Source: an uncultured Methanosarcinales archaeon (GTDB lineage Archaea; Nanobdellota; Nanobdellia; Woesearchaeales; ARS49). Taken from it: a stretch of DNA of 64,000 bases. Position 1 is the stretch's first letter. Each line of letters opens with the position of its first letter. A program made the position numbers and the translations under genes. The notes beneath the pieces were generated by a model. That model saw only the letters and a program-made list of their open reading frames with translations, ran no database searches and was not told the origin of the DNA. The stretch covers positions 248,294-312,293 of the forward strand of contig CAZJXP010000001.1 of assembly GCA_964550175.1 (NCBI GenBank), given 5' to 3'. This document shows, one piece after another, positions 5,649-61,604 of the stretch.

Positions 5649-6826
5649 ACGTCTGCTTCTACTTCCAAATCCACCAGCCGTTCAGATTGAGACGGTATCA
5701 GGTGTTCGACATCGGCAAGAATCACGCGTATTTCGATGACGCGAAGAACGAGGAAGTGCTGCGAAAAGTCGCGGCGAAATGCTACGTTCCCGCGACGACG
5801 TTGTTGTTGAAGCTATTGAAGGAACACAAGGAGTTCAAGGTGGCGTTTTCCATAACGGGAACGGCTCTAGATCAACTTGAAGCGTATGCGCCTGAAGTCA
5901 TCACGCTGTTCAAGAAACTGGCCGCAACGGGCCGAGTTGAATTTCTGAGCGAGACGTCGCACCACAGCTTAACATTCCTTTTTGATAGAAAAGAGTTCAA
6001 GGAACAAGTAAGTAGCCACAAGGCACGCATCAAGAAACTGTTCGGAGTTACTCCGACCGTGTTCAGGAACACGGAGCTCATTTACACGAACGAGCTGGCT
6101 AAGGTCGTTGAAGAATTAGGGTACAAGGCCGTGTTGATGGAAGGAGCCGACCATGTGCTGCAAGGCAAAAGCCCGAACCACACCTATTCCGCCTCGGGAA
6201 CGAAAACGAAATTGCTGCTCAAGAACTACAAATTGTCAGATGATTTAGCATTCCGGTTCTCGGACAAGAAATGGGAAGGATACCCGCTGACGCCCGGCAA
6301 ATTCGCGTCATGGATCGAGGCGTCCGGCGGCGAGACCGTGAATTTGTTCATGGACTACGAGACGTTCGGCGAACATCAATGGGAAGACTCAGGTATTTTC
6401 AAATTGCTTGAAGGACTGCCGGCTGCGCTGTTGAAACGCAAGATCGGATTCCACCTGCCTTCCGAAGTCGCGACGCTGAAGCCCGTCGGCACGCTTGATG
6501 TCAAGTCTCCAATGTCATGGGCGGACGTCGAACGGGATGTGTCCGCATGGCTGGGCAACAACATGCAGAACGCCGCGGCGCAGCACCTGTATTCGCTGTT
6601 ACCAATTATCAAAGAGACCGGTGACAAGAAATTGCTTGAGGACTGGCGCAAATTGAGCACGAGCGACCACTTCTACTACTTGTGCACCAAATGGTTCGCC
6701 GACGGCGATGTTCACAAATATTTCAATCCTTATGAAAGCCCGTACGACGGGTTCATCGCGTTCATGAACGTGCTGAATGACATGAAGCAGCGCGTACAAC
6801 CCCAAGCATGGGTGACAGTGAGGTGA
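5645..6826 (+). CDS. glycoside hydrolase family 57 (alpha-amylase or alpha-glucan-acting enzyme)
   Basis: N-terminal GH57 signature CFYFQIHQPFRLRRY. The ATG at 5645 overlaps the glgA stop (ATGA). The longer ORF start at 5588 was rejected. Confidence 0.8.
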   Translation: MNVCFYFQIHQPFRLRRYQVFDIGKNHAYFDDAKNEEVLRKVAAKCYVPATTLLLKLLKEHKEFKVAFSITGTALDQLEAYAPEVITLFKKLAATGRVEFLSETSHHSLTFLFDRKEFKEQVSSHKARIKKLFGVTPTVFRNTELIYTNELAKVVEELGYKAVLMEGADHVLQGKSPNHTYSASGTKTKLLLKNYKLSDDLAFRFSDKKWEGYPLTPGKFASWIEASGGETVNLFMDYETFGEHQWEDSGIFKLLEGLPAALLKRKIGFHLPSEVATLKPVGTLDVKSPMSWADVERDVSAWLGNNMQNAAAQHLYSLLPIIKETGDKKLLEDWRKLSTSDHFYYLCTKWFADGDVHKYFNPYESPYDGFIAFMNVLNDMKQRVQPQAWVTVR

Positions 6827-7296: not shown

Positions 7297-7596
7297 ATGA
7301 AGGCACAAGCGACTCCGAAGACAACCGTCCTAGGCAGCGCTCCCGAAGGAAAGGCCTTTGTTCTTCATGATGGACGAAAGTTAAGGACGCTCTACGAACT
7401 CATTGATGAATTGGAGACAATGAACGATGATACGTTCAAGTCATTTGTTCACCAAGGCAAGAACGATTTTGCTTCTTGGATTGAAGGCGTGTTCCAAGAG
7501 AAAACATTAGCTGACGAGCTGCGCAAAACTCCCTCTCGTACTGACCACCAGAAAATCATACTCAAACATCTTGTTCGATTATTGAGGAAACCATGA
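7297..7596 (+). CDS. hypothetical protein, paralog 2 (shared TF..HV..GKNDF..WI domain)
   Basis: 99 aa. RBS gaggtg before the ATG. Conserved L.TLYELIDELETMNDDTFKSFVHQGKNDFASWI. Confidence 0.6.
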   Translation: MKAQATPKTTVLGSAPEGKAFVLHDGRKLRTLYELIDELETMNDDTFKSFVHQGKNDFASWIEGVFQEKTLADELRKTPSRTDHQKIILKHLVRLLRKP

Positions 7597-8703: not shown

Positions 8704-9251
8704 GCGACCTCTGCGACGTCATTGATTTGGCCTTTTACAACATAGCCGTTGATGACATTGGCCATCAGTCCGGTCTTTATGCCGTCGATTTCTTTCTTGC
8801 TTTTGAAGACGTGCAGCTCGATTCTTTTCTTGAGCTTACGCTCGAATTCGCGCTTGTCGAAACCAGAACTGTCGCCGAAAATAAAAACGTCAACATCAGA
8901 CTCTTTGTACCAGTCGCCTTTCACCATGCTGCCGAACAATATGACGGTTTTCGCGGACTTTAACGACAATAACTTCGGGATGAGCCCGCTGTTGTGCAGC
9001 TGCTCCAAAGCGTAGACTCTCTTAAGTGATTGATAATAGGGATTGTTCGCGCCAGCGGTGTAATGCGGAAATCTGCCCTTTACTTTCACGTAGATGAGCG
9101 CGCCTTCGTCGACGCACTTGTTTAGCCACTTGATTGCGACCGCTTTCGTTACCTTCGCTTCTTTGATTATCTCCTTGAGATGCCATTCCTTCAGCGGGCT
9201 GTTTTCGAGGATTAATTTCACCACTGATGATTCCTTACTTGGACTCGCCAT
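8700..9251 (-). CDS. minimal nucleotidyltransferase (MNT) with N-terminal wHTH
   Basis: Pol-beta-type NTase motif GSMVKGDWYKESDVDVFIF. Confidence 0.8.
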   Translation of the reverse strand: MASPSKESSVVKLILENSPLKEWHLKEIIKEAKVTKAVAIKWLNKCVDEGALIYVKVKGRFPHYTAGANNPYYQSLKRVYALEQLHNSGLIPKLLSLKSAKTVILFGSMVKGDWYKESDVDVFIFGDSSGFDKREFERKLKKRIELHVFKSKKEIDGIKTGLMANVINGYVVKGQINDVAEVA

Positions 9252-9463
9252 AATTGGTATGACTGAGATAGACTATTTAAAGGTTGCCCTTGTAATGGTC
9301 GATCACGATATTTGATGTGAATATATAACCACACAAACTAGAACCGCAAATCTTCCGCTTTTTCCGGAAAGTTTTCGGTTTTTCTCGAGCAAACGTTATG
9401 AATTCTGTTTGGTTATGTTTGTTCATGAGCGAAACTTTAATAAGTAAGCCCTGCCTTACCGAA

Positions 9464-9718
9464 GGCATGGAGCTCGTGCATATGTCAAGCAAAGGCCAGA
9501 TAGTGATTCCGCTGCAGGTGCGCAAGCACCTGAAGCTCACGCGCGGATCACGGCTCGTGCTGGTGGAACAGAAAGGGATGGTCGTTCTCCGAAAGGAAGA
9601 CGACGACACTATCCTGACGCCGGCTGACAAAAGAGCGATTGACCGTGCACGTCGAGACATTCGAGAAGGAAAAGGTATCACTCTCGACCAACTCGAAAAA
9701 GAACTCGGCTATCGATGA
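9464..9718 (+). CDS. AbrB/SpoVT-MazE family antitoxin
   Basis: SSKGQIVIPLQVRKHLKL is a swapped-hairpin AbrB fold signature. A TATA-like ctttaataag lies about 25 nt upstream. An alternative start is at 9482. Confidence 0.65.
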   Translation, partial: GMELVHMSSKGQIVIPLQVRKHLKLTRGSRLVLVEQKGMVVLRKEDDDTILTPADKRAIDRARRDIREGKGITLDQLEKELGYR

Positions 9719-9966: not shown

Positions 9967-12311
9967 CGCTTGTTCGCAAAGACAAATTGGTAGTCCTTGC
10001 CTTCTAACAACGTTATGAGCGCGTTCTCGTACGGGAAGAACGTGTAGGTCGCGGATGGTAATGAATCTAAGTTTATTCTTTCCTCGTTCTGGATTTGGCT
10101 TATTACCGTGGCGTTTGTGGCTTCTAAGAAGTTCAATACTGGCTTTCCTGTGGCTACGAAATCCTTGAACTCCCAACGGTTCGTTCCCTTGTTGACGAAG
10201 AACCTGTACTCCATCATGAACGTGGTTTGGTCCTTGCCGAGAATTGCTTTTACTGTTGGACTGCCGACGTTTTCAACTGTAACACCGGTAAACGCCTTGA
10301 AATTGTCGATGCACTTGATTGTTCTGGCTTTCGTATCCTCTCCTACGTCTAATTCTATTCTTTCTAATGGTAATTGGTTGTCAACCCCTTGGAGGTAGTC
10401 GAAGGCGGTTGTTGGCGTGGTTTGGAACGGGGTTTGCAAGGCGAGATGACCTCCTTGGAGGCCTAATACTTTCAAGGTGTCTTCGCCCGCGAGTTTAAGA
10501 CAGTTGTTGACGTACTCTTGCACGGTTGATTCTGATTTTACTACAATATGGTCTGGGACTGTGATGAAAAGCAATAACATGGCTACGGCTAAGATTACGA
10601 CGCCTAAGAGCATGAAGATGGTTAATTGGCCGCGGGATGAGCGTTTACTTTTTTTACCACTGCTGACCCCGGCAGATTTTGAGTTAGTGGCTCGATTGAG
10701 CTTTGAATGATGGCCTAAACGCGTCCAATCTTGGCGGTAAAAAGTCTTGCCGGGGCGCGACATGGCAACTCCGGCTAATATCACCGCGAACGAAGCGAAC
10801 AGCAACGCGTGAACTGAAGTGAGATGCTTGATTAATTCTGCAATCTTACTGTGTCCTGCGGGGTAGACGGTCAAGACAACCCCATTCCTCTGGTAATCAA
10901 CCGTGTTGTCGTCCACTTTCATGACCGAAGGGCTGTACGCGGTGCGGTAAGACTTGATCCAGGACTGCGTGAGCTTTTCTTTGGTTATCTTGTCGTTGAT
11001 GGTGAGCAAGCGTTCGGTTGACGTTCCATGCTGGATGGCCTCTTCGATGGTTATGTAGTTGCTGACGACCGTCTTGTACGGAGGGGCGTCGTTCAGGATC
11101 AAGACGTCGTTGATGAACGCGTTGTCCTTGTCGAACGTCAGGATGGCTTTCGCGTCCTTGTTGCCCGTTGTGAAGAACGTGACCAATCCTTCCGACTTGC
11201 CGTCCTTCTTTATTTGTGGCTTGTTGAGGTCGACGATTCCCCTGATTTCCAACGCGTGGTTCGGAAGGTCGAAGATCGAGCAGGACTTGCAGGACTTCAC
11301 TTCAGGCGGGAACGCGTCGGAGTCGGACTTTCTCAGGAAGATATCGTGATTGTCCTGCCAGGCACGGATGCTGAAGTCTTTAGTTGCGTCCTTCGCATCA
11401 TAGGTGTACAACGTGACGGGCTCCATATGGATGTGCTGCATCCCGTCAGTTCTTGAGACTTCGACCTTTGCGGAATTGTTAGATTCTACTGTTTCCGTTA
11501 TTCCGTTCTTTTCCAATTCGATTTGGACATCTATTAGGTCTAATACGGTTGTTGTGGTGCTCTTTGAAATGACTAAAGAGGAATCATCTGAGAGAGACTT
11601 GAAATCGTACTGGTTCGTCGAACAGTCCTTGATCTTGAATTCGGAATCCTTATCCGCGTCGATGGTCACGTCGGTTTTAGCCGTAATCTTCGCGTTTTCA
11701 ACATCTTCCATGTAAACGCAGCTCGCCCAGACGGAATCTGCTTTCTTTACGTCAATCGTCTTGTCGCAATAATTGACTTTATCGAGCTTAGTTGCGATAG
11801 TGTCGGTTTCTACGAGAGAATCGGCTGTGTCGGCGGTTAAACAACCATTTTCGTATTTTACATTCTTGCCGTTGGTGATGACTATGGGGCCTTGCTGGAG
11901 GGAACCGACGGAAGCGATTGAGTAGCCGCCGCCTTGGACAGAAACGCCCGTTACATCAGCAGCCTTGCCAGAACCTTTCGGAGTATCCATACTTTTTGCG
12001 TATGTTAAATGACCACTTGCATCAACTTTCCCGCCAACAACATGCGTGAAAACATTACCATCAGCATCCGTAAATTTGTCCGTATCAACATTATAGGATC
12101 CATCAGGATTTTTGGTTGCCGTACCACCTTCATAAGTGGCGCCATTGGCATCTTTAGCCATTGTGTCAGGAGTAATATCTTGTTTCACACCAGCATCGCC
12201 ACCTCCACCCGGACCATCACTTGGAGGAGGAGTTGTTCCATCAGCGATTACTGCGACTGAAAGTAAAAGTAGAACAACAAGTAGTATAGGGATAACACCT
12301 CTTTTACTCAT
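9963..12311 (-). CDS. large secreted surface protein, with signal peptide and internal hydrophobic anchors; an interspersed repeat lies in frame at 10643-10746
   Basis: N-terminal signal MSKRGVIPILLVVLLLLSVAVIADG. A TM segment plus basic tail (LLFASFAVILAGVAMSRPGK) is typical of an archaeal C-terminal anchor. It is followed by repeat-encoded sequence and then a second TM segment. The 782-aa ORF may really be two genes, roughly 10750..12311 and 9963..10640. Confidence 0.55.
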   Translation of the reverse strand: MSKRGVIPILLVVLLLLSVAVIADGTTPPPSDGPGGGGDAGVKQDITPDTMAKDANGATYEGGTATKNPDGSYNVDTDKFTDADGNVFTHVVGGKVDASGHLTYAKSMDTPKGSGKAADVTGVSVQGGGYSIASVGSLQQGPIVITNGKNVKYENGCLTADTADSLVETDTIATKLDKVNYCDKTIDVKKADSVWASCVYMEDVENAKITAKTDVTIDADKDSEFKIKDCSTNQYDFKSLSDDSSLVISKSTTTTVLDLIDVQIELEKNGITETVESNNSAKVEVSRTDGMQHIHMEPVTLYTYDAKDATKDFSIRAWQDNHDIFLRKSDSDAFPPEVKSCKSCSIFDLPNHALEIRGIVDLNKPQIKKDGKSEGLVTFFTTGNKDAKAILTFDKDNAFINDVLILNDAPPYKTVVSNYITIEEAIQHGTSTERLLTINDKITKEKLTQSWIKSYRTAYSPSVMKVDDNTVDYQRNGVVLTVYPAGHSKIAELIKHLTSVHALLFASFAVILAGVAMSRPGKTFYRQDWTRLGHHSKLNRATNSKSAGVSSGKKSKRSSRGQLTIFMLLGVVILAVAMLLLFITVPDHIVVKSESTVQEYVNNCLKLAGEDTLKVLGLQGGHLALQTPFQTTPTTAFDYLQGVDNQLPLERIELDVGEDTKARTIKCIDNFKAFTGVTVENVGSPTVKAILGKDQTTFMMEYRFFVNKGTNRWEFKDFVATGKPVLNFLEATNATVISQIQNEERINLDSLPSATYTFFPYENALITLLEGKDYQFVFANKR
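10643..10746. repeat. complete MITE-like repeat copy located in frame inside ORF 9963..12311
   Basis: TTTACTTTTTTTACCACTGCTGACCCCGGCAGATTTTGAG...CCAATCTTGGCGGTAAAAAGTC, with an internal hairpin GCTCgattGAGC. Confidence 0.6.
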
Positions 12312-12344
12312 AATTAAAGAAACAGACGAGACGTTATTTAAAGC

Positions 12345-13460
12345 TTACTTCTTCTCATACTCAACTTTGGACCATCGTTCTTTCTCAGTTCGTTTATTTT
12401 GTGAGCGCCAAACAAAGGAACCATTGGGTGCTGTGAGGTTCGTACTTGCCCAATATTTACAAATGTCACGCGCCCACGCTTTAACATATTTTGTTTCTTG
12501 AGGGGCACCTGCAAGAACGTCAAGAACCTTTATCTTACCATCATTTTTCTCAGGTGTTTCACCTTTTACGACATCATATTTAGCAACAATGAACAAGGAA
12601 GGTTCAGCAATAGAACCAAACTGTTTCATGACCTCCTTCAGATCATCTTTGACCGCAGTGTTCTCCGCATCATACACTTTAAGCGGCACACCCAAAACCT
12701 TACTCGCATACTTTGCAAGAATGGCAGAACGAATGGATAAAATTGTTGCATTATCTTTTCCATTAAAATCACACATTAATACAAGACTTTTATCATCTTT
12801 CAATTCAGCAATTTCTTTTGCAAATTCTCCTTTCCCGATATAAGACACTTTAGCATCACTAGCAAAATCTTTGTCATCAAAAACTTCTTTCGCGGTTTTG
12901 TATTTTGCTTCAAGTTTTTGGGCTAAATCATCGGTAAAATCATCGATATTCACTTCTTTAACATCTGCTTGTATTTTCGGGTCTTCTGCGTATACTCGTG
13001 GTGTGTTTAGTCCTGAGAATCCGAATGCGGTGGTTGTGAGTATGGCTGCGTAGGCGATGTTGTTACGTGCTTTGTGCCAGAATGATTTCTGTAAAGGCAC
13101 TTGTTCTGCGTTTTGTATTGCGTTGTCGATGCTCATGATGATTCTTGCCTTGTACGTTTCGTACTGTTTTGCCCGCTTTTGCCCTTTTTGGTCGGGCAAT
13201 CCTAATGACAAATGTTCTTTGAATAGTGTGATGTCTTGCCTGAACACGTCTAGCCAAACAACGGCTGTTTCTGCGTGTTTGCGAGCCGTTCCGGTGACGT
13301 TCTGTGTTACCGTGACTGCTGCAGTGCGCAACAGCTCAATCTCCTGCAAAACGGTTTGAGCGTCTTGCAAGGTCATGTTCGCAAACCGCAAATCTCGGCG
13401 GCGCGAACTTAATGTTTTGACTCCGTTGCTGACCGACTTGAGCTGGCGAAACACATCCAT
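12345..13460 (-). CDS. hypothetical membrane-associated protein
   Basis: 371 aa with one TM segment (IAYAAILTTTAFGFSGL) and no recognisable family. Confidence 0.5.
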   Translation of the reverse strand: MDVFRQLKSVSNGVKTLSSRRRDLRFANMTLQDAQTVLQEIELLRTAAVTVTQNVTGTARKHAETAVVWLDVFRQDITLFKEHLSLGLPDQKGQKRAKQYETYKARIIMSIDNAIQNAEQVPLQKSFWHKARNNIAYAAILTTTAFGFSGLNTPRVYAEDPKIQADVKEVNIDDFTDDLAQKLEAKYKTAKEVFDDKDFASDAKVSYIGKGEFAKEIAELKDDKSLVLMCDFNGKDNATILSIRSAILAKYASKVLGVPLKVYDAENTAVKDDLKEVMKQFGSIAEPSLFIVAKYDVVKGETPEKNDGKIKVLDVLAGAPQETKYVKAWARDICKYWASTNLTAPNGSFVWRSQNKRTEKERWSKVEYEKK

Positions 13461-13654
13461 GTCAAGATGGACGTATTACGACTATATAAAACAAATCAGT
13501 ATATAATTGTTATGACTGTTTTCGTCGATGATGGACATGAAAACAGCAGAATTCGCCTTTTTGCCCCTTATAAATGACCTTAAAATCTATATAAAATATA
13601 TAAATTATAAGGACAATTAATATATACTTCCTTTAGCTCTATCTTTACTACTTA
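13461..13654. promoter_or_regulatory. AT-rich divergent promoter region with several TATA-like boxes
   Basis: ctatataaaaca, ttataaatga and atatataaatta lie between divergently oriented genes. Confidence 0.4.
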
Positions 13655-14290
13655 ATGGTGGTGTTGAGGGAAGACAAAATGAGCTTAACGTCCATTGTTC
13701 AAAACACCATACGTAAAACAAGCCCGGTAATCGCCAGACGACTGTGCGACCGATCTCTCGCAAAGGCGCGTTCTTCTGCTAAGGAGTATGTTCGCCATAA
13801 AGATGAATTCCGGCTCTACCTCCAATTCTGTGAACGCGCCCAACCGTCAAGATATGATGACTGGCAAATGAATTACAATATCCGCAAATACCAAGAAACT
13901 GCACAAGACCTTGTCGAACGCACCAACCACAAATATGCCCGCGCAAGAGCGTGGGAAACACGCCAAGAGGTCGCGGAAGAACGCCTCGTCTTTTATACAG
14001 GCACGGCACACGTTCTCGCAAATTGCCCGGTCGAACGCCTCCTCCATTACCGCACGCTCGTTGAAGATGTGCGCAGTATCGCTCCCACTTCAACAGTGCT
14101 CGGCAAAGTAGACGAAAAAATCATTGGAGAAGGCACCTGCGACAAACACGACACGCAAGACCACATTACCATGTTCAAAACAGCAGGCTATGAAAAGGAA
14201 GCAAAAGCGCTCGCGGCGCTCTACGCAGAACAAATCATGCACGACCAACCACAACGCGCATGGGAATTCATGAAACAGACCATGGCTTAA
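13655..14290 (+). CDS. hypothetical protein
   Basis: 211-aa ORF with no recognised motifs. An alternative start is at 13679 (MSLTS). Confidence 0.5.
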   Translation: MVVLREDKMSLTSIVQNTIRKTSPVIARRLCDRSLAKARSSAKEYVRHKDEFRLYLQFCERAQPSRYDDWQMNYNIRKYQETAQDLVERTNHKYARARAWETRQEVAEERLVFYTGTAHVLANCPVERLLHYRTLVEDVRSIAPTSTVLGKVDEKIIGEGTCDKHDTQDHITMFKTAGYEKEAKALAALYAEQIMHDQPQRAWEFMKQTMA

Positions 14291-14337
14291 ATCTGAATAA
14301 CCACCACAATAAAACATAAAATCACGAGAGGATAAAT

Positions 14338-15297
14338 ATGAAAACAAGATTTCCGGGAATCTCAGCATTGGTGAGGTGTAAAGATGAAGGCGATTCGGTA
14401 TACGCAAGTTTATTTTCAATAAAAGATCTTGTTGATGAAGTTGTCTTTGTTGACAATGAATCGGTGGATAATAGCATTGCCGAAGCTGAAAGATTTAAGA
14501 ACGATCATTTCAAAGATAAAAACTTCATTATTCGCCCTTATGCACACAGTGTTGCAGGAGGCAATCATCTTGCGGACATGAATAATTTTGCCTTATCCTT
14601 GACTTCAACCGAGTGGGTTATGAAGTGGGATGTTGACACTATTGCGTACACTGCGGGAGAAAACTCCATCTTAAAGCTCAAAGAACGCGTATTCGCTAAC
14701 GGTTCTCCTGTGGACATTATAAGATACAGTTTTTTTAATCTCTGGGGTGATTATTTCCATTGCCTGCAAGCAAGATTCGGCGATCCTGAATATGGCCCGA
14801 CTGGTTGCGGATTGGAGTTGCAAGGTTGCGAAAAAAGACTGTATCGGTATGATGATGATATTCATTTTGAAATGGAACGTTATGCTGAACACTTTTGGGA
14901 AGCTATGCGAGTACCTCTTACCTATAAAGAAATGCAGTTAAGTATTGTGCCTGGCGTACACTTGCAGACGGTTAAACCTTCAAGCTTGGTCGGTCGTAGA
15001 TTTTTTCTTACGCGCTTTACACCAGGTGAGCGAGAAAAATATGGAAGTTTTACGAAATTTGTGCAACATGAGCTACGAGAAGCAAATTGTCCTTCTCTTG
15101 AGCTTTTCGGCAAAAAACTCATTATTGATGAAGTGAATGTACGTGGTACAAAGTTCAAACAGCCGCATCCTGATACAATGTACCAATTGGGTTTGATGAA
15201 AGAACTCCCATATGAACTCATTTTTGATGAAACTAACGTCTGCGTTGATAGAAAAGAACGAAATGCAGCACACGATTACTTGAGGGATGGAGAATGA
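14338..15297 (+). CDS. glycosyltransferase family 2-like (GT-A fold)
   Basis: N-terminal ISALVRCKDEGDSV...VVFVDNESVDNS fits the GT2 pattern (I..TYNE...VDDGSTD). AT-rich codon usage. Confidence 0.7.
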   Translation: MKTRFPGISALVRCKDEGDSVYASLFSIKDLVDEVVFVDNESVDNSIAEAERFKNDHFKDKNFIIRPYAHSVAGGNHLADMNNFALSLTSTEWVMKWDVDTIAYTAGENSILKLKERVFANGSPVDIIRYSFFNLWGDYFHCLQARFGDPEYGPTGCGLELQGCEKRLYRYDDDIHFEMERYAEHFWEAMRVPLTYKEMQLSIVPGVHLQTVKPSSLVGRRFFLTRFTPGEREKYGSFTKFVQHELREANCPSLELFGKKLIIDEVNVRGTKFKQPHPDTMYQLGLMKELPYELIFDETNVCVDRKERNAAHDYLRDGE

Positions 15298-16388
15298 ACT
15301 TATTATTTTGCCTTCATTCATTTAACATTAATGGAGTATTAAACCAGAATCTTTCATTAGCAAAACACATTCTGAAGAAACTGCCTGATGTGCGCATTAC
15401 GGTCATTGCACCAACAAAGAAAGAGGGGATGCTTGCATATCTCGCATTAGGAATTGATGCGAAAGCGATAAATCCTGCAACCGATAAGGATGGGTTCAAT
15501 ACTTTGGCAAATGGGTCACATGACGCTATTTTATTTGAGTCGTTATTTTCATTAAATTATTATGGTAGTTTATTGGCCGGCAATCAAAAAAAATCTGTAT
15601 TGCACATTCATGAAGAGTTGCCTCTCACCCATAAAAGCGACTTATGGAATGTTGATGCAAAATCAATAGATGATTATTTTTCAGAACTGGTCAATTCTAC
15701 AGTTATATTTTCGGGTCAAAAAAGTCAACTCCATTATTCAAAAAAGCTCTTGGAATACAAGATTCAATCGCATGTTATCAATAATGTGGTTGATGTTGAT
15801 AAGTTTAAAGCAATAAAAAGGAGGGACGATGGCGCATTTAATATTGTTCAAGTAGGGACAATCTATGAGCGCAAAGGAGCAATACAAACATTCGAAGCAT
15901 TCAACATATTATTGAAAAAATATTGCATTGAAAATGCAAACCTCGTCTTCGTAGGGGCACGTAAAGGAAAACCTGCCGAAGAAGATTATGTGCAGCAACT
16001 AGTCAAAAGAACAAAGCTGCTGCACTTGGAAGATCAGGTTAAAATAGAACCGGTAATTACTGAACCAAGCAAATATTACGAAAATGCTTCGGTTGTAACA
16101 CTTCATTCTCAATCAGAATCTTACCCCACAGTATTTCTTGAAGCATGTTATTTGGGAATTCCGTTTGTGGGAAGTGTTGTTGGATGTTCTCAAGAGATGG
16201 AACGCAAATACGGAAACGCACTATTATTTCCCATTGGGGATATTGAAAAACATGCACAATGTTTGCACCAAATTTACGAATCTCAATTTCCTGAAAAGAA
16301 AATGACCCGGGAACAGTTAGAAGTACATTTTGAAAATAATCACGATAAAATGATAACTCGGTTGCTCTTGAAAAATGGAAACTCTTGA
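15294..16388 (+). CDS. glycosyltransferase family 4 (GT-B fold)
   Basis: C-terminal ESYPTVFLEACYLGIPFVGS is the E-x7-E GT4 motif. Confidence 0.75.
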   Translation: MNLLFCLHSFNINGVLNQNLSLAKHILKKLPDVRITVIAPTKKEGMLAYLALGIDAKAINPATDKDGFNTLANGSHDAILFESLFSLNYYGSLLAGNQKKSVLHIHEELPLTHKSDLWNVDAKSIDDYFSELVNSTVIFSGQKSQLHYSKKLLEYKIQSHVINNVVDVDKFKAIKRRDDGAFNIVQVGTIYERKGAIQTFEAFNILLKKYCIENANLVFVGARKGKPAEEDYVQQLVKRTKLLHLEDQVKIEPVITEPSKYYENASVVTLHSQSESYPTVFLEACYLGIPFVGSVVGCSQEMERKYGNALLFPIGDIEKHAQCLHQIYESQFPEKKMTREQLEVHFENNHDKMITRLLLKNGNS

Positions 16389-17658
16389 AGAAAAAATAGA
16401 CTTGCGCATAGAGCAGGAAACAGAATTGGTATTCCAAGCGTATATTACGAATGACGTCATGACCGGCATGGCAAGAGACGAAGTGACTCAATTAGCAAAG
16501 AAGTCGAAGAATAGGGTTCTTGCTGATAGTGGTGTAATGATGCAAATCATGCAAGAAGCAGAAGAAGCATACATAAAATCTTTAGCAAATGTGAACGAAG
16601 AACTCGCTGAAGAATATGTCCGCATTAAAAAAAGTGCTTGTCCGATTGAAGCTAAAAAAACAATATTTTCTGAATGCAAAAAAACATTAGATGATGTCAT
16701 TTTCAAAAGAAAATTCATTGAAGCCAGAATTAGTCTGAATCTTGATCGTGACGCTCAGCACATTAAATCTTCGATTAAACAAGTACTGTTGCGTGATTAT
16801 AGGGACCTCGTGAGTGGTTTAACAAGGAGTTACGCATCGATGAACAGTGATGGTGAAGCAAACAAATTTATTGAGTTTTTACTTGATTTTAGTCAAGACA
16901 GCACGGGTATTTTATACGAACGTGAATTTAGACGAATCCTTGCTGACAAAATGAAACCGGCAGATATTTTGATTTACAAATGCTTGCGGTTCACCCATGA
17001 TGAAGGTCATCTTAATATCTGTCCTCATTTAGACGATTATCGCACTCAGGATATCAATGGAAAGCCAGTTATGTTTAAAGGAGCTTCAGACACGTATCAA
17101 CTCAAAAAAATATTGTATCTTGCCAAGCACCTGAAAAAATATTCCGGAAGTAAACAACCAATTCTGATTGTGGCTGATGGTGATATGTTTAAGTATGGCC
17201 CTGAAAAATATGCCGAGTTCAGCAGCAAAATACACGAGTATTTAGTAGAGATACGAGCTTATTGCCCCGCCTTAGATGTACGTTTAGAAACTGAATATTT
17301 CGACAACCAACAAGAATACAAAGAACTTGAAAAACGGGTTAAAAGTTCAATTCTACAGCACCAAAACGACTATATCGCGCCTGAAGAAACCCAAAGAATT
17401 ATTGAAGATTACGCGTCACGATTCCGTGCTATGCTTAAAGACTGGACGATTGAAAAAAATCAATATTACTCGGTTACGTCTATTTCCCGTAACATCGCTC
17501 AGGGAATGTTTTTATCCTATGAAAAACGTAAGGCAATTGTAGTTGTATTCAATAATCCTGATAGTACTGGCGCAAGATTTAATCTGAAAACGGAAGAGAA
17601 AGTGCCATTTATCGGGTATCCTAAGTTGTCATCCAAAGTGGTGAATAACAATGACTGA
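16375..17658 (+). CDS. hypothetical protein (427 aa) within the AT-rich glycosyltransferase island
   Basis: Long ORF with no family motif recognised by eye. Overlaps both neighbours. Confidence 0.55.
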   Translation: METLEEKIDLRIEQETELVFQAYITNDVMTGMARDEVTQLAKKSKNRVLADSGVMMQIMQEAEEAYIKSLANVNEELAEEYVRIKKSACPIEAKKTIFSECKKTLDDVIFKRKFIEARISLNLDRDAQHIKSSIKQVLLRDYRDLVSGLTRSYASMNSDGEANKFIEFLLDFSQDSTGILYEREFRRILADKMKPADILIYKCLRFTHDEGHLNICPHLDDYRTQDINGKPVMFKGASDTYQLKKILYLAKHLKKYSGSKQPILIVADGDMFKYGPEKYAEFSSKIHEYLVEIRAYCPALDVRLETEYFDNQQEYKELEKRVKSSILQHQNDYIAPEETQRIIEDYASRFRAMLKDWTIEKNQYYSVTSISRNIAQGMFLSYEKRKAIVVVFNNPDSTGARFNLKTEEKVPFIGYPKLSSKVVNNND

Positions 17659-18436
17659 TATTTCGCGTCACCATAATGATGTCAAAATCACGCAGAAGAG
17701 GGTCACTAAAAAGTTTACTGAAGAAAGTGGATTAGAACGAGAACTCGCGGCGGCAACACTCTTGGGTGATCAGATCCCCCTTGCGAGGATAGTGAGAATT
17801 GACCGGGCGAAAAACGCACTTATTTTTGAAAGATTTATGTACGAGTCAGGAATTGACAAGGACCCTTGTTTAAGATTATGTGAAATCGCTCGCATCTTAA
17901 AAAAGCTGCATTCTATTAGTTGTGCCAATAGTAATCTGGAAGATGCGCGTTTCCCGTTGCAAGATTTTGCTGGAACGCTTACAGCTCATGTCAGAAATAA
18001 ATATATTCATGGTCTTGCAAAATCAGGGTATTCCGTCCCCGCTGAGAATCTGCTTGACCTCGGATTAGCATTAACCCCGAAAAAATTTAGTTATGTTCAT
18101 AATGATGCGAAATGCCGACATTGTTTTTTTGATAAAAATAATCAGCTTAAAGGAATAATTGATTTTGAATACTTTGGTCTTTTTGATCCTCTTGTAGATA
18201 TAGGTAGCATTGCCGCCGATGTATTTGAATCTAATCCAAATGAGTTCAAAACGTATACACGCGCCTTTTTTGGTGAATATGGTCTTCAGGAACGGGACAA
18301 ACGTTCCGTCTTGTTTTACATGATTACGAGCAAACTCACTCAAGCGCTCAATATAGATTTGCCTTCGGGTAAAGAAAAAGACGCAAAAAAGGCACTCCAG
18401 TTAGTAAATACTTTCTCTCAAATGCAAAACCTTTAA
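17651..18436 (+). CDS. APH/choline-kinase-like phosphotransferase (small-molecule kinase fold)
   Basis: Catalytic loop VHNDAKCRHCFF and metal-binding IDFEYFG are the Brenner and DFG-like motifs of the APH family. Confidence 0.65.
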   Translation: MTDISRHHNDVKITQKRVTKKFTEESGLERELAAATLLGDQIPLARIVRIDRAKNALIFERFMYESGIDKDPCLRLCEIARILKKLHSISCANSNLEDARFPLQDFAGTLTAHVRNKYIHGLAKSGYSVPAENLLDLGLALTPKKFSYVHNDAKCRHCFFDKNNQLKGIIDFEYFGLFDPLVDIGSIAADVFESNPNEFKTYTRAFFGEYGLQERDKRSVLFYMITSKLTQALNIDLPSGKEKDAKKALQLVNTFSQMQNL

Positions 18437-18457
18437 TATATTCAAATACTTGAAATA

Positions 18458-19147
18458 ATGATGACAGGGACCATATTTCTTTCCGGAGGGGGTAATTCAA
18501 TAATTTATAAAGATTTTGACAATGCTCTATCGAAAAAAATTGCCGGTGGTAAAATATTGTGTATTCCTTTTGCTAATCAAAAAAAGAGCCGGGAAGAACA
18601 TGTCGACTGGATGAATCGAGTATTCAATAAATTTCAAAAGAGCAAAATACTGATTGTCAAGAATGTAGCTGATTTGAGAAAAATTAAAATGAACACGCTC
18701 GCACTAGTATATATCTCAGGAGGAAATACTTTTCAACTTCTAAAAAAATTAAACGTAGAAGGGATCAACATGCTAAGAGAATACTATGCGAAAGGAGGCA
18801 CTATTTATGGAAGTAGCGCCGGTGCAGCAGTGCTAGGAACGAGCATTCTAACAGCAAGTATTGATGATACCAACAAAGTACATATCGATAGTACTAATGG
18901 TTGTAATCTCATAAACGGATATTCAGTATATTGTCACTATAAGAAAGACGACCAGTGGAAATTTGATATTTTTATCAATGAACATCGGATTAAAAAAATA
19001 TTAATCTTGCCGGAAGGATCAATTATCTCCATCCAAAATAAATCCGTGCGTACAATTAAAAATACAGCGTATAAAATTAGTGCTAAAGCCAACTTAGAGT
19101 ATCAAATAAAAAAAATAAAAAAAAGAATTACTTCAATTCATACGTAA
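18458..19147 (+). CDS. peptidase S51 family (dipeptidase E or cyanophycinase-like)
   Basis: YISGGNTFQLLKKL and GSSAGAAVLG carry the nucleophile Ser, characteristic of S51. Confidence 0.75.
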   Translation: MMTGTIFLSGGGNSIIYKDFDNALSKKIAGGKILCIPFANQKKSREEHVDWMNRVFNKFQKSKILIVKNVADLRKIKMNTLALVYISGGNTFQLLKKLNVEGINMLREYYAKGGTIYGSSAGAAVLGTSILTASIDDTNKVHIDSTNGCNLINGYSVYCHYKKDDQWKFDIFINEHRIKKILILPEGSIISIQNKSVRTIKNTAYKISAKANLEYQIKKIKKRITSIHT

Positions 19148-19871
19148 TACTAACCGTCTTCTGGACAGAGACGTCTGAAGGGATGACTTCGACGGCTTTC
19201 GCGATGCTGCCTTCGGCCATCATCGTGTCGCGGCCGTACATCGGCCACGGGTAGTAGTTGTCGCTTTCCTGGATTGACAACACCTTGCCGAGCTTTGCGC
19301 CGGCGGTTGCCGTAAGAGACTCAGCCTTCTGCTTCGCGTCCGCAACAGCAAGTGCGCGGACTTGGTTGTCGTACTGCTTCCGCAATTCGTCCGTCAGGCC
19401 GAACTGCACGTTCTGGATCAGCCCGTTCTGGCCGCCAATCGCCTCAACGACGGCTCCTGTTTTGGTCAAGTCCTTGACCGTCACTTGGATGCTGTGCGTG
19501 CCTCGGTAGCCCTTGATGGTCTGCTGGCCCGTTTCAGGATTCCATTGATAGTCCGGGTAGACATTGAACCCGGTGGTCTGGATGTCCGCATCGGTGATGC
19601 CCTGCGCCCGGATGGCTGAGAGAATCCTGTCCGTGCTCTTGCTCAACGTTTCTTGAGCGGAGCTCGCGTCCATGCCCGTGCTTTCAACAAGCACCCAGAT
19701 GTCCGCCTTGTCAGGGGACACTTTCATGTCGCCGAGACCGGAGACTGAAATCACATTTTGCGTGCTCGTTCCTTGGTTCTGGTACATCACGAACGCGACG
19801 AGGAGGATTGCTGCGATCGCGACGATCCAGGGTAAGTTGTTTTTTTCCATTTTGATCACCTTTTTGACCAT
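19128..19871 (-). CDS. SIMPL/DUF541 family protein with N-terminal membrane anchor
   Basis: TM at the N-terminus. VSGLGDMKVSPDKADIWVLVES and overall similarity to the SIMPL 26-kDa periplasmic protein family. Confidence 0.7.
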   Translation of the reverse strand: MVKKVIKMEKNNLPWIVAIAAILLVAFVMYQNQGTSTQNVISVSGLGDMKVSPDKADIWVLVESTGMDASSAQETLSKSTDRILSAIRAQGITDADIQTTGFNVYPDYQWNPETGQQTIKGYRGTHSIQVTVKDLTKTGAVVEAIGGQNGLIQNVQFGLTDELRKQYDNQVRALAVADAKQKAESLTATAGAKLGKVLSIQESDNYYPWPMYGRDTMMAEGSIAKAVEVIPSDVSVQKTVSITYELK

Positions 19872-19923
19872 AATTCACCTGTTTATATATAAGCTCGGAT
19901 TTTATAAGGCTGTTGCCTTAGGA

Positions 19924-20484
19924 TTATCGCAAGAACTGGCTGTATTTCTTCCTTTGATAGTACGAATAGCTTAACATTCCTATGAGCAAAGCAAGCCAGA
20001 CGACGTACACGATGACGCCGAGACTGAGTTGATACGTAGCTCCGGTCTGTGCCGCGTCCATAGCTAAAGACGTTCCAGGCGCCGCTTCCATCGTTAACGC
20101 TAACGAGTCGGCCGACTTCATCGCGACCGGCGGGTTAAGCAACGGCTCGACAAACGGACGGATGTACGCGACAGCTCCGGCGACGGCGGTCAAAATCAGT
20201 AACGACAACGTGATAAGAATGCGCTGCTGCTCCGGGTCGAGAATCGCTTTGCATTTAGCGGTGAGCTCGTAATACTTCCACTTACGGCCGTCATCCTTCT
20301 TGACAATCAATCCAGCCTTCAACAGTCCGGCGAGATGCTCGTTGACGGACGGCTCCTTCATTCCTAACGAAACGGCCAGCTCCGACTGCATATGCCTTCG
20401 TTGCTGCAAGAGCTTCAGAATCTTGATCCTTGTCTCTGCCGCTAACGCCTTGAAGCTTTCCCGGTCGAGGGTTATCGAATCCAT
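19924..20484 (-). CDS. ArsR-family wHTH transcriptional regulator fused to two C-terminal TM helices
   Basis: FKALAAETRIKILKLL...MQSELAVSLGMKEPSVNEHLAGLLKAGLIV is the ArsR HTH. Two hydrophobic segments follow. Confidence 0.75.
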   Translation of the reverse strand: MDSITLDRESFKALAAETRIKILKLLQQRRHMQSELAVSLGMKEPSVNEHLAGLLKAGLIVKKDDGRKWKYYELTAKCKAILDPEQQRILITLSLLILTAVAGAVAYIRPFVEPLLNPPVAMKSADSLALTMEAAPGTSLAMDAAQTGATYQLSLGVIVYVVWLALLIGMLSYSYYQRKKYSQFLR

Positions 20485-42404: not shown

Positions 42405-43048
42405 CGCATCCGAACATTGACGAGACATTACGGATTCTCGTTAAACAGCAAGGCATCACCACGATGTTGGGTAGAATGGGGCAAAAGTACGAGCCGTTCA
42501 AAGTCCTGATTTCAACCATCATGTCCGCGCGGGCGAAGGATGAAGTCACCGAAGTGCTCGCCGAAAATTTGTTCAAGAAATATCCGGACGCTCGATCGTT
42601 GATGCGCGCGAAGCCTTCTGATGTCAAGAAGATTATACGGAAGATAGGGTTCTTCAACGCGAAGACGAAAAGCATCATGGCGGCGTCGAAGATGCTGGTT
42701 AAAGAATACAATAATGTCGTGCCGGACACGCTCGAACAGCTGCTCAAGTTTCCAGGAGTTGGCAGGAAAGTGGCGAACTGCGTCTTAGTATATTCTTTCG
42801 GCAAGGACGCGATTCCCGTTGACATTCACGTGCATCGCATTTCCAACCGATTAGGCTGGGTGAAGACTAAAACTCCGGAAGAGACGGAACAGAAGCTGAT
42901 GAAACTGATTCCGCAGAAGCACTGGCAGGCCGTCAATGATACGCTCGTGGCGCACGGCAAGACGATTTGCGCCCCAATTTCTCCGAAATGCTCCATCTGC
43001 CCGATTTCTCAGTATTGCAAACGGGCCGGCGTTACGACATCACGATAA
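42341..43048 (+). CDS. nth: endonuclease III (Nth) with 4Fe-4S cluster
   Basis: FPGVGRKVANCVLV, IPVDIHVHRI, and the C-terminal C-x6-C-x2-C-x5-C (CAPISPKCSICPISQYC). Confidence 0.8.
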   Translation: MGQARGLRTAVHLPLAENNIVTHPNIDETLRILVKQQGITTMLGRMGQKYEPFKVLISTIMSARAKDEVTEVLAENLFKKYPDARSLMRAKPSDVKKIIRKIGFFNAKTKSIMAASKMLVKEYNNVVPDTLEQLLKFPGVGRKVANCVLVYSFGKDAIPVDIHVHRISNRLGWVKTKTPEETEQKLMKLIPQKHWQAVNDTLVAHGKTICAPISPKCSICPISQYCKRAGVTTSR

Positions 43049-43064
43049 ACGGCGCAGTTGATTT

Positions 43065-43083
43065 ACGGGATTGCAAATCCCGT
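43065..43083 (+). terminator. hairpin ACGGGATTgcaAATCCCGT downstream of nth
   Basis: 8-bp perfect stem seen directly. Confidence 0.35.
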
Positions 43084-43144
43084 GAGTCTCGTTGCCCCCT
43101 CCAAATAGAACGTTTCGTTCTGTTTGTGGTGCACGTCATTTGAA

Positions 43145-43399
43145 CTAAAAGATTTTTCCGACCAGATAGCCCGAGCCGAACAAGAACACGACCAGTCCCA
43201 AGCACCCAAGGCTGACAATGAGGAATATGATTCCTAATATGAGCCCAATAATCGCAAGGATTCCGCCTTCTTTCTTTTTCCCCAGCGCGCTCTTTGAGAT
43301 GACGATGGCGCACAACGCAATAAACGTGCCGAGGAACGGAATCCAGAACGTCAACAGGCTCAATATGCCAAGCACAAATCCGAGCTTATTCTTTGCCAT
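43145..43399 (-). CDS. small membrane protein (DUF4190-like)
   Basis: 84 aa, 3 TM, Gly/Ile/Leu-rich. Confidence 0.55.
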   Translation of the reverse strand: MAKNKLGFVLGILSLLTFWIPFLGTFIALCAIVISKSALGKKKEGGILAIIGLILGIIFLIVSLGCLGLVVFLFGSGYLVGKIF

Positions 43400-59062: not shown

Positions 59063-59162
59063 AGTGTTCCTTGATGAGCGAATGTTTTTAAATGCATCGA
59101 TGAACGTAAGTTATAACTCTCAGGGCTCACGCAATAACGGCCGGGGCCAGCAACGAAAAAAG

Positions 59163-60413
59163 ATGGTAAAGATATCTAACGCAAAATCACTTTCCTCCTC
59201 TCCTGCCACGAAGGCGTGCGTCGAAATTCTTAATGCCGCCCTTGACGCAGTCAATCCTGAGAAGGCGCTGGCCGAGAAAGTCAGAGTATTGGGCGACACG
59301 CTGCACGTTGATGACAAGCGCTACGATTTGACGCGGTACAAGCGACTCTTTGTCGTTGGCGCGGGAAAAGCGTCTGGCACGATGGCCGCGCTGCTCGAAA
59401 AGATGCTCGGCAACCGGATAACGAAAGGAATGCTGATTGATATTACGCCGCTAAAATTAAAACACATCACGGTTGTCGCAGGCGACCATCCGGTCGTTTC
59501 GTTGAATAACGTCAATTACACGAAAAAGATTCTTCAAATTACAAAAGACATGAACGTCAACGACTTGGTCCTCTGCGTCTTTTCCGGCGGTGGCTCGGCG
59601 TTATTTTCCGATCCTCGCATTCCGCTGGCAAAATATCAGGAGTTGAGCAAATCGTTATTACGTTCGGGCGCGACCATTCAGGAATTTAACACGGTGCGTA
59701 AGCACCTCGATTCCGTGAAGGGCGGACGGTTTGCGTCGCATTTGTTCCCGGCGACGGTCGTCACGCTGATGATCTCTGACGTGCCGGGCAACGACCCGTC
59801 GTTCATCGCGTCCGGACCGACGGTGCATGATTCGACGACAGTGAAGGATTCGCAACGTATCCTCGCAAAGTACGGACTTCCTCAGCCTGCATTTTCCGAA
59901 ACCCCGAAAGAGACGTTCTCAAAAGTACAAAATTTGATTTTCCTTGACAACGGCAACGCCATCCGGGCGATGGCGAAGAAAGCCGAAGAGCTTCATTTGA
60001 CGCCGGTTATCATCGGCGATCGATTGTCCGGCGAAGCGCGCGAGATGGGCATCACGCTGCTGCACAAGCTCGGCAAAAAGACCGCCGTCATCGGCGCGGG
60101 CGAAACTACTGTTACGGTTAAAGGAAAAGGAAAAGGCGGACGCAACCAAGAATTAGTCTTGGGTAGCGTCATCGCATTATCTGAAATGAAAAACACGGCA
60201 TTAGCTTCGATGGGAACGGACGGCCGGGACAACTCCGACGTCGCGGGCGCGATCGCCGACGAAAAAACATTATTCCTGGTGAAAAATCTCGACGTGAAAA
60301 CGTTCTTGAACGCGAACAACTCCTACGAGTACTGGAAGAAAACGAAACGGCACATCAAGACCGGACCGACGGGAACGAACGTCTCGGATGTCATGCTCGC
60401 AGTCCGACTTTAA
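59163..60413 (+). CDS. glycerate 2-kinase, MOFRL family
   Basis: VLCVFSGGGSALF and GTDGRDN motifs. Start placed at the ATG at 59163 (MVKISNAK); the upstream part of the ORF lacks signals. Confidence 0.8.
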   Translation: MVKISNAKSLSSSPATKACVEILNAALDAVNPEKALAEKVRVLGDTLHVDDKRYDLTRYKRLFVVGAGKASGTMAALLEKMLGNRITKGMLIDITPLKLKHITVVAGDHPVVSLNNVNYTKKILQITKDMNVNDLVLCVFSGGGSALFSDPRIPLAKYQELSKSLLRSGATIQEFNTVRKHLDSVKGGRFASHLFPATVVTLMISDVPGNDPSFIASGPTVHDSTTVKDSQRILAKYGLPQPAFSETPKETFSKVQNLIFLDNGNAIRAMAKKAEELHLTPVIIGDRLSGEAREMGITLLHKLGKKTAVIGAGETTVTVKGKGKGGRNQELVLGSVIALSEMKNTALASMGTDGRDNSDVAGAIADEKTLFLVKNLDVKTFLNANNSYEYWKKTKRHIKTGPTGTNVSDVMLAVRL

Positions 60414-60499
60414 TTTCTCAAAATGATTGTTCTTGTTTTCTCGACGACAGAAAAAATAGTTCACAACATTTATATGGTTAGACGACGTATGCTTGAGTA

Positions 60500-60685
60500 C
60501 AGGTAGATGGTGCCAATACACAAAATAGGTGAAGCACCTCAAGACCGACACCATCACGCCTGAGAAGAGCGACAGAAAGAAACAGCCGAAATAGCTAGAG
60601 TAGGAAGCGGGCTGATGGTGCCTCTACACAAACGAGGTGATGGCCAACCGAGATTGACACCATCGGCCATATTTTTATTTTTCTT
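60500..60685 (+). ncRNA. candidate structured small RNA: two tandem 50-nt hairpin modules (GATGGTGCC..ACACAAA..AGGTGA..GACACCATC) between a TATA-like box and an oligo-T tract
   Basis: Modules at 60506-60555 and 60614-60664 share four conserved blocks and 7-bp closing stems. tttatat lies at 60470-60476 and atttttatttttc at 60671-60683. The location is a convergent intergenic region. Confidence 0.3.
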
Positions 60686-60704
60686 AGAGAACATTACTCT
60701 TGAA

Positions 60705-61604
60705 CTAGACTTCAGCATCATCGCAGCTGATTCTTCCGCCATCGAGATCGTAGCTCATCTTAAGCCAGCTCAACCGCAGGCTCTTCGCCAGTTCGCAGAA
60801 ATCTTCAGTTTCGAGCTCGTATTCGACGCCGAAAACCGCTTTCTCGTTTTCTATAAACGGCAAAACTCTCTCGCATTCATCGTACTCGAAACATTGCTCG
60901 TTGACGGCGAAATCGAAGTGGTCGACTAACTCAGGAATCTGGTCCAAATCATTTTTCAGGCCGATGGACAATTTCCGTTTGTGCGCCTCATCGGCCAGCC
61001 ATTTGTTGTACGCCAACTGGGCTTGCGCCGTCAAGGAAAAACCGTTATCGTTCAGATACCCGTCAACATTGTCAGGTTCTACTCCGTCGCAGCCTTTTTC
61101 AACGGCCAAATCAAATCTTTTTCGCATAATAGGCGCGAGCAAGTCTATTCTTGACACATCAAGCCATTTCTCATCTTCCCAGCCTTCCAACGTATTGCCC
61201 AAAACCTCTTGTGGAAACTCAGCCTCGTCGGCTCTCCAGTCTTCGTAGCTTCCGGCGCTGAAGTAGCAGATGACCTTGATTTCTTTGCGCTGCAATTCTT
61301 TGATATCCTCTTTCGACGCATCAAACAAGTCGATATCATACATATCGACCGGATAATTCAAGTTAAGATCTCCCGCAAGTTGCCATTGCCAAGACGTTTT
61401 CGGAGCAGGTTTCCACCACGTAGTTTCGAGCGGGACAAAAGAGGACGTAACTTGTTCTACCACTGGCGTCGCATTTTGTTCTGACGTGCTGTTGACCACA
61501 ATCTCAGGAGCGGGCGGTGCTGCGATGAGCGGTTCTGCTTTTTCTTGAACGCAGCCGCTGACAAGAAGAAGCCCGATTAATACTTGCCAGAGTTTCATTT
61601 CCAA
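60705..61604 (-). CDS. glycoside hydrolase family 114-like (endo-alpha-1,4-polygalactosaminidase family) lipoprotein
   Basis: VICYFSAGSYEDWR and DGVEPDNVDGY TIM-barrel motifs. Lipobox LLLVSGC. Confidence 0.65.
   Translation of the reverse strand: MEMKLWQVLIGLLLVSGCVQEKAEPLIAAPPAPEIVVNSTSEQNATPVVEQVTSSFVPLETTWWKPAPKTSWQWQLAGDLNLNYPVDMYDIDLFDASKEDIKELQRKEIKVICYFSAGSYEDWRADEAEFPQEVLGNTLEGWEDEKWLDVSRIDLLAPIMRKRFDLAVEKGCDGVEPDNVDGYLNDNGFSLTAQAQLAYNKWLADEAHKRKLSIGLKNDLDQIPELVDHFDFAVNEQCFEYDECERVLPFIENEKAVFGVEYELETEDFCELAKSLRLSWLKMSYDLDGGRISCDDAEV

Follow-up and report, generated by a model that had tools for sequence, protein, structure and literature searches.

The window, the whole 64,000-nucleotide stretch of DNA that we analysed, comes from a Woesearchaeota (DPANN) archaeon, a tiny, symbiotic-type, genome-reduced organism, and its contig encodes the archaeal marker ribosomal protein S27e. 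A MOFRL/DUF4147 glycerate kinase gene and a GH114 gene converge on an intergenic gap, and an enolase gene comes after the GH114 gene. The gap holds two hairpin modules (M1 and M2), preceded by a TATA box and followed by an oligo-T run. The features, in window coordinates, are as follows.

59100..60413, + strand: MOFRL/DUF4147 glycerate kinase gene (Pfam and gene call in L001), the conserved upstream neighbour of the predicted RNA gene
60469..60476, + strand: archaeal TATA box TTTATATG, read in the sequence, 24-31 nt before the first stem base at 60500
60500..60562, + strand: module 1 (M1) hairpin; minimum free energy −18.5 kcal/mol, z = −2.98, 70.4 bits with covariance model R1
60500-60504 with 60558-60562, + strand: M1 outer stem P1a, CAGGU/GCCUG
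60506-60514 with 60547-60555, + strand: M1 conserved helix P1b
60515-60525, + strand: M1 A/C-rich 5' strand
60527-60531 with 60535-60539, + strand: M1 apical hairpin, AGG(UG) with (CA)CCU
60527..60534, + strand: M1 Shine-Dalgarno-like motif AGGUGAAG, degenerate, with AAG replacing AUG
60563..60609, + strand: linker between M1 and M2, 47 nt, purine-rich, with no T-run and no well-placed TATA box
60610..60668, + strand: module 2 (M2) hairpin; minimum free energy −23.5 kcal/mol, z = −2.61, 61.8 bits with covariance model R1
60610-60613 with 60665-60668, + strand: M2 outer stem P1a, GGCU/GGCC
60614-60622 with 60656-60664, + strand: M2 P1b
60623-60632, + strand: M2 A/C-rich strand
60633-60637 with 60648-60652, + strand: M2 P2, CGAGG with CCGAG, containing tandem G.A
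60634..60642, + strand: conserved core motif GAGGUGAUG in M2, whose first 8 nt complement the canonical archaeal 16S rRNA 3' tail
60638-60647, + strand: M2 apical loop
60672..60682, + strand: predicted oligo-T terminator TTTTTATTTTT, beginning 4 nt after the last stem base
60705..61343, − strand: GH114 gene (Pfam and gene call), convergent with the predicted RNA gene

Other parts of the window also deserve mention. The longest GH114 open reading frame runs from 60705 to 61604 on the − strand and, with TTG as its start codon, encodes 299 aa; the public gene call covers 212 aa (60705-61343), and about 250 nt carry no gene call before the enolase gene. A block at 12001-20000 is low in GC (0.38-0.42, where most of the window has 0.50-0.58) and may have been acquired horizontally or be an island of surface-glycan genes. 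The largest gap without a long open reading frame, 789 nt at 42428-43218, contains strong hairpins, e.g. GAUUUACGGGAUUGCAAAUCCCGUGAGUC around 43055-43090, and has no Rfam match.

A sequence-only reading of this DNA had described two modules with shared blocks, and the sequence is as it described. The blocks GATGGTGCC, TACACAAA, AGGTGA and GACACCATC are common to M1 (60506-60555) and M2 (60614-60664); the 5' 27-nt block is 85% identical between them, and the modules as a whole only ~60%. These block patterns match only the two sites in the 64-kb window and have no match in 100 dinucleotide-preserving shuffles. The closing stem proposed earlier, GATGGTG with CACCATC, forms in the minimum-energy folds of both modules. 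Once a few flanking bases are added, a further outer stem appears in both folds, so that each hairpin is ~60 nt long; the outer stems of M1 and M2 are unrelated in sequence. The 211-nt stretch folds into two independent hairpins joined by the purine-rich linker, with a folding z-score of −2.83 on the + strand and −1.95 on the − strand. Two degenerate copies that do not fold would, on the earlier account, have spoken against a structured RNA; both copies fold, with z-scores of −2.6 to −3.0. No other TATA-hairpin-oligo-T gene of similar design occurs in the window's intergenic gaps.

We sought homologs on contigs encoding progressively more distant orthologs of the kinase. At least four other Woesearchaeota lineages have a predicted orthologous module right after the kinase gene:

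L004 (identical to L005): module at 7323-7390, kinase identity 65%
L053: module at 6050-6119, kinase identity 65%
L055: module at 9490-9551, kinase identity 55%
L056: module at 4822-4881, kinase identity 56%

With an HMM built from five modules, nhmmer recovered the orthologs at E = 1e-11 to 1e-17 and nothing else, and all six modules score 55-73 bits with covariance model R1. A search for homologous modules elsewhere in the genome had been named as a check; we found none elsewhere in the 64-kb window, but did find them at the same place in relatives. HMM and covariance model searches of the window and of L016-L020, L054 and L057 found no extra copies, and with R1 the ~207 kb of Woesearchaeota DNA at hand likewise contained none; therefore, the element is single-locus and not a dispersed repeat. 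Its distribution is patchy, as no such RNA lies next to the kinase in L016, L018, L020, L054 or L057. The loci L002 and L003, whose kinases are 78-79% identical, carry a shortened ortholog that R1 misses and whose orthology rests on homology of promoter and position. It keeps the promoter, the terminal stem (GGUGGCGC/GCGCUGCC plus GGG/CCC) and the T-run, and its interior is a ~19-nt loop containing GGAGGGAUGCAACGA.

Wider searches yielded no additional family members. Among the matches listed by a kinase-based protein scan of genome contigs there were only bacterial loci (Patescibacteria and Chloroflexi, L006-L015), which were uninformative. A pattern search with GGTGCC..TACACMAA..GGTGAWG returned 32 metagenome-contig loci (L021-L052), which we rejected as chance or coding matches without the closing stem, and the same pattern had no match in viral contigs. 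A blastn search of the element against plasmids and phages found no similarity.

The composition of the relatives' RNAs bears on how the tandem evolved. The promoter region of M1 is common to the single module of L004 and L053. M2 is closest to the L055 and L056 modules (63% and 58% identity) and has its outer stem GGCU/GGCC and the terminator TTTTTATTT in common with them. These shared parts strongly support the view that relatives retain either an M1-type copy (L004, L053) or an M2-type copy (L055, L056). In L055 and L056, the 5' extension of the RNA still contains linker sequence (CGACAGAAAGAA), and the stretch ACCAUCAC...CGACNGAAAG in it seems to be what remains of a lost M1, namely its 3' end, together with a piece of the linker. 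The apparent extension is ~40 nt long (L055 9450-9489, L056 4780-4821) and has two small conserved hairpins, GACAU-NNG-AUGUC and a covarying GCC/GGC hairpin. Given that relatives have a single module, one module suffices, and the predicted minimal features retained throughout are the terminal stem and the G-rich motif.

The neighbourhood downstream of the element varies by lineage. GH114 occupies this position in the window; L004 and L053 have MazG there, with its own TATA-like box ~20 nt before the start codon, and L055 and L056 have a convergent enolase gene. Genes for Nop10, eIF2-alpha and S27e are present in the relatives' loci. Several smaller features were seen in these loci as well. Directly upstream of the TATA-like box of MazG (AATTATAG/AC), whose start codon lies ~20 nt beyond that box, is a conserved palindrome (L004 7401-7436, L053 6321-6356, L054 3400-3435) that reads GTGGGCGG..N..CCACAC in L004 and L053 and GTGTGGGAG..GGTCACAC in L054. 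It looks like a transcription-factor operator, separate from the small RNA. In L053, an uncalled 51-aa open reading frame at 6164-6319 (MVKEATYRGTHVFVCQRCGFEFSEKKWAQACEDWEKTHRSCNRKVVAHALK), with CxxC and C/H motifs, lies between the small-RNA terminator and MazG, and its predicted product resembles a zinc ribbon. An uncalled open reading frame of ~31 aa lies between the kinase and the small-RNA promoter in L055 (about 9236-9330, reading VNKTERLLERDFCRWGAAIKDVEKE...) and L056 (about 4555-4653, reading VKQTDERLLLRDFWRWGAAIKDVEKE...). Its protein sequence is conserved and GGGAGG stands before it, so it probably encodes a genuine micro-protein.

The signals at the two ends of the element are conserved. 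The tttatat box that had been pointed out upstream of M1 is TTTATATG, and homologous boxes lie at a fixed distance in the orthologs: it aligns with TTCATATA in L004 and L053 and with AAATATAG in L003, with 21-23 nt between the box and the first stem base in the window and these three loci. The consensus in the window, L004 and L053 is TTYATATR, 22-23 nt from the outer stem; the spacing also holds in L002 and L003, and a promoter sequence, CAYAAC-N4-ATATAGTT, aligns across the window, L053, L004, L003 and L002. Transcription is predicted to start at about 60498-60500. Oligo-T is the archaeal termination signal, and the run after M2 that had been proposed as terminator also has equivalents right after the stem in relatives (TTTTTTATTT in L055, TTTTTTTATTT in L056, TTTTCTTTT in L004 and TTTTTT in L053); such a run lies 0-4 nt past the stem of every terminal module. 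Because M2 has no TATA box at the right spacing and no T-run follows M1, the two modules are probably transcribed as one dimeric RNA of ~180 nt. Together, the predicted signals strongly support the interpretation of 60469-60682 as a stand-alone small-RNA gene, with a transcript that would run for ~180 nt from the first base of M1 to the oligo-T. The module alignment has more G-U pairs than A-C mismatches on the + strand, and this excess, with the promoter and terminator, places the gene on that strand.

The element could instead belong to the kinase mRNA as a cis-acting 3' element, i.e., a 3'-UTR stabiliser or terminator hairpin and not a separate gene. Its constant position downstream of the kinase on the same strand and its terminal oligo-T would fit such a role. 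We consider this unlikely, as the conserved TATA box stands 21-23 nt ahead of the outer stem, the kinase gene has a T-rich run of its own (TTGTTTTCT) after the stop codon, and in L055 and L056 the small conserved open reading frame separates the kinase from the RNA promoter. Moreover, archaeal termination requires no hairpin, and several lineages have the kinase without the element.

The anatomy of the family was derived from a hand-registered alignment of the six full modules, from about four lineages; MAFFT versions were also built. The outer helix P1a (4-5 bp) is fully paired in all six modules and covaries in the hand-registered alignment, with CAGGU/GCCUG, GGCU/GGCC, GGCG/CGCC and ACGGG/CCCGU as its forms; one position alternates between AU, GC and CG, another between GC and CG, and the ends between CG and AU and between UG and GC. 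The adjoining helix P1b (9 bp, GRUGGUGCC/GRCACCAYC) is nearly invariant. An asymmetric internal loop follows: its 5' strand, J5, is 10-11 nt long and 80-91% A+C, with varying sequence and register, and its 3' strand, J3, is 3-11 nt long and purine-rich around an AGA core, and begins with AGA, AAGA or AUA. The upper helix P2 (5 bp around GAG/CUC) shows changes from A-U to G-U and from G-C to G-U, and is capped by an apical loop, UGAUGNN, of 7 nt (10 nt in M2). All three helices, P1a, P1b and P2, come out of RNAalifold. A formal shuffle test on the MAFFT alignment showed no excess covariation, because the sequences are too few, P1b does not vary and P1a is out of register there; covariation is seen only in the hand-registered outer stem. 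The statistics are weak because only six full modules from about four lineages are at hand, and the comparative support for the predicted family structure is real but thin.

This structure also bears on a DNA-level origin, in which the element would be an inverted-repeat protein-binding site, a MITE/REP-like element or a degenerate pair of CRISPR repeats. In its favour, the arms GATGGTGCC and GGCACCATC are perfect inverted repeats of each other, the element occurs patchily among lineages, and the best Rfam match on the element is to CRISPR-DR63, a weak one at 17.9 bits against a threshold of 37 (E = 4). Such an origin nevertheless appears very improbable to us: the element has no other copy in 64 kb or in related loci, the element is syntenic across kinases that are 55-65% identical, and it matches no plasmid or phage. 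Its G-U pairs are strand-asymmetric, its outer stem covaries, and promoter and terminator sit exactly at the stem ends. The two copies, only ~60% identical and separated by a 47-nt gap, are also unlike a CRISPR array.

Comparison with Rfam 15 at gathering thresholds gave no match anywhere in the 64-kb window or in nine related loci, and ARAGORN found no tRNA or tmRNA gene in the window. None of the organism's rRNA lies in the window or in the nine loci. Rfam had been named as a check on the element, and no family matches it even at E<=10, where the element and its orthologs gave chance-level matches only, including a human lncRNA.

The sequence-only reading had also held that the modules fit neither the box C/D nor the H/ACA rules, and the defining features of both classes indeed fail. 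For the terminal K-turn of a box C/D RNA, we looked for a C box (RUGAUGA) at the 5' end and a D box (CUGA) at the 3' end and found neither: the 5' UGAUGG lies inside a continuous helix and is unconserved (AGAUGG in M1, CGGUGG in L004 and L053), and the 3' ends of the modules read CACCAUC followed by stem sequence, with no CUGA. The two C-box-like UGAUGG words that had been noted in M2 are present (60613-60618 and 60638-60643), but only as incidental parts of helices, the first within the Watson-Crick closing helix. Similarly, the CUGA noted after M1 exists at 60560-60563, but is mostly the 3' strand of the M1 outer stem and thus incidental. C'/D' boxes with 12-nt guide spacing are absent too: an internal GUGAUG is conserved, but without D or D', and 12 nt past each UGAUGG M2 reads AACG and GACA.

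For the H/ACA class, no ACA (ANA) box occurs 3' of a ~9-10 bp lower stem at 14-16 nt from the pocket; the tails after the stem read AGA, AUA, UUU, UUU, ACC and CUC, and the lower stems measure 13-16 bp. A K-turn or K-loop for L7Ae was not found either, as the GA dinucleotides have no conserved canonical flanking stem, the 7-nt loops (UGAUGCA, UGAUGAG, UGAUGCG and UGAAGCA) have no GA at their 3' end, and tandem G.A occurs only in M2. Manual fitting of K-turn and K-loop registers (C-stem, 3-nt bulge, GA...GA) to every ortholog gave none that was conserved. An H/ACA target reconstructed from the loop strands was rejected, since its register moves by 3 nt between L004 and L053. A degenerate pseudouridylation guide that uses its stem-internal loop-stem pocket with Cbf5-Nop10 is one way to read the arrangement of hairpin, large internal loop and hairpin, and the related genomes do have Nop10 genes. 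This is quite unlikely in view of the variable tails without a box at fixed distance, the lower stems longer than the expected ~9-10 bp, the lack of a conserved K-turn or K-loop, and Rfam scans in which the modules match no family. In addition, close orthologs differ in the sequence and register of the pocket strands, and L002/L003 lack these strands.

An orphan ligand-binding (riboswitch-like) aptamer in tandem is even less probable. Two similar domains in tandem and a U-tract directly after P1 would suit it, and we counted in its favour what we take to be a short word likeness to the fluoride motif (GAUGGUG...ACACC) and the guanidine-III motif (ACGAGGUG). There is, however, no downstream gene to regulate, the neighbour being convergent (GH114, enolase) or, in the case of MazG, equipped with its own TATA-like box. 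Conservation is lowest in the junction strands, and none of the Rfam riboswitch models gives a match, even at E<=10.

With orthologs in at least four lineages, a covarying outer stem and no matching Rfam family, the earlier suggestion of a novel structured small RNA is borne out at the level of prediction. The element is very probably a real, selected, structured small-RNA gene of a new family.

The motif that this RNA truly conserves is GAGGUGAUG, with its resemblance to a Shine-Dalgarno site plus AUG, rather than the C-box-like words. The sequence (C)GAGGUGAUG is identical in M2, L053, L055 and L056, with the variants GGGGUGAUG in L004 and GGAGGGAUG in L002 and L003, and (G/C)GAGGUGAUG is the element kept by every version of the RNA. 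The 3' end of archaeal 16S rRNA is GGAUCACCUCCU, and all versions of the motif are near-perfect complements of this canonical tail, which may not be the host's own. When the window is compared with the complement of GGAUCACCUCCU, the stretch GAGGTGAT in M2 ranks among the three longest matches. In real genes of the window, AGGTGA lies 3-5 nt before ATG or GTG; in the motif, the Shine-Dalgarno-like sequence is fused to, and overlaps, the AUG. Base pairs of the apical stem take up half of the motif (GAGG).

A tiny protein-coding gene with a functional Shine-Dalgarno site and AUG would explain this resemblance directly. We regard it as extremely unlikely: the overlap of AUG and Shine-Dalgarno site contrasts with the 3-5 nt gap in real window genes, M1 has no AUG, and reading on from the AUG gives unconserved peptides (MANRD* in M2, MRLRDFG... 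in L004, MHHDTVG... in L055, with frames that differ between L002 and L003). The AUG is therefore not a coding start. The motif could also be left over from an mRNA leader, or owe its conservation to something other than the ribosome.

We favour a function in trans. As the best reading overall, with a probability of roughly 0.35, we propose a new lineage-restricted family of structured small RNAs that acts as a decoy of the translation-initiation region. The RNA would act through two conserved surfaces, the invariant helix and the apical hairpin that resembles a Shine-Dalgarno site plus AUG. Since the spacing between the Shine-Dalgarno-like sequence and the AUG is too short for real initiation, we propose a mimic: a decoy ribosome-binding site shown on a stable stem, which would titrate the anti-Shine-Dalgarno tail of the 30S subunit or else a protein with affinity for Shine-Dalgarno regions. 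A second contact, specific to a protein, would be made by the invariant helix. Such a decoy would expect a 16S rRNA 3' end of ...GAUCACCUCC. The decoy mechanism taken by itself is tentative, and we would put it at somewhat worse odds than the reading as a whole. More speculative still is the idea that this may be the first archaeal mimic of an initiation region, a spacer-less Shine-Dalgarno-AUG decoy that would set global translation capacity in a genome-reduced DPANN archaeon.

Among the alternatives, a small RNA that base-pairs in trans deserves the most weight, even if we doubt it. Here, mRNA sequences that are rich in G/U or of the Shine-Dalgarno kind would be targeted by a seed, either the unpaired A/C-rich strand (UACACMAAAC) or CCUC, and the stems would only give stability. 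That the gene stands alone and its RNA would have a stable hairpin and end in a U-tail is in keeping with this, as are the CCUC stretch in the 3' strand of P2 and an A/C-rich strand that is conserved in length and composition and cannot pair with itself. Yet that strand shifts in sequence and register between close orthologs (UACACCAAACC in L004, ACCAAACAAGC in L053) and is wholly deleted in L002 and L003, and the most conserved parts of the RNA are the helix and the apical loop.

A full-text literature search found nothing relevant, and to our knowledge the non-coding RNAs of DPANN archaea are almost uncharted. The family is compact and suited to covariance modelling, with a predicted promoter and terminator, an invariant helix and a ribosome-binding-site look-alike, and its one-module, two-module and naturally minimised (L002, L003) variants already point to the essential parts. 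If expressed, the RNA would offer a handle on post-transcriptional or translational control in organisms not yet grown alone.

Among known systems, archaeal box H/ACA small RNAs are also small stand-alone RNAs with multi-hairpin versions, and the element is similar to them in its long lower stem, large internal loop and short upper hairpin. It differs in the missing ACA/ANA box and K-turn/K-loop and in a lower stem that is too long, and its internal-loop strands are unconserved between orthologs and dispensable in L002/L003. Archaeal box C/D small RNAs are comparable in size (~60 nt per module), and the element has UGAUG words like C/C' and one CUGA; its ends, however, form a 13-16 bp helix instead of a K-turn, with neither a D box near the 3' end nor 12-nt guide spacing. 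Y RNAs, the partners of Ro60/Rsr, likewise have a long terminal stem in which a sequence-conserved helix is flanked by a covarying one, an internal loop, a 3' oligo-U tail and a length of 60-110 nt. The element, in contrast, has no sequence similarity to them and no match to the Rfam Y_RNA family, no Ro/TROVE gene was seen near it, and its apical GAGGUGAUG loop has no Y RNA counterpart.

The bacterial CsrB/RsmZ decoy small RNAs resemble the element in their possible working and not as a family. Both have repeated hairpins that show a Shine-Dalgarno-like motif, GGA in CsrB/RsmZ and GAGGUGA in the element, and such a motif could titrate a factor that normally binds mRNA ribosome-binding sites. 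The element, known from sequence alone, has one or two motifs per RNA, and its motif is longer and half-paired; we know of no CsrA homolog in archaea. If the decoy idea holds, the sponge-RNA principle would extend to archaea, and if the decoy acts on global translation, the RNA would count either as the archaeal equivalent of CsrB/RsmZ-type sponges or as an RNA that silences ribosomes.
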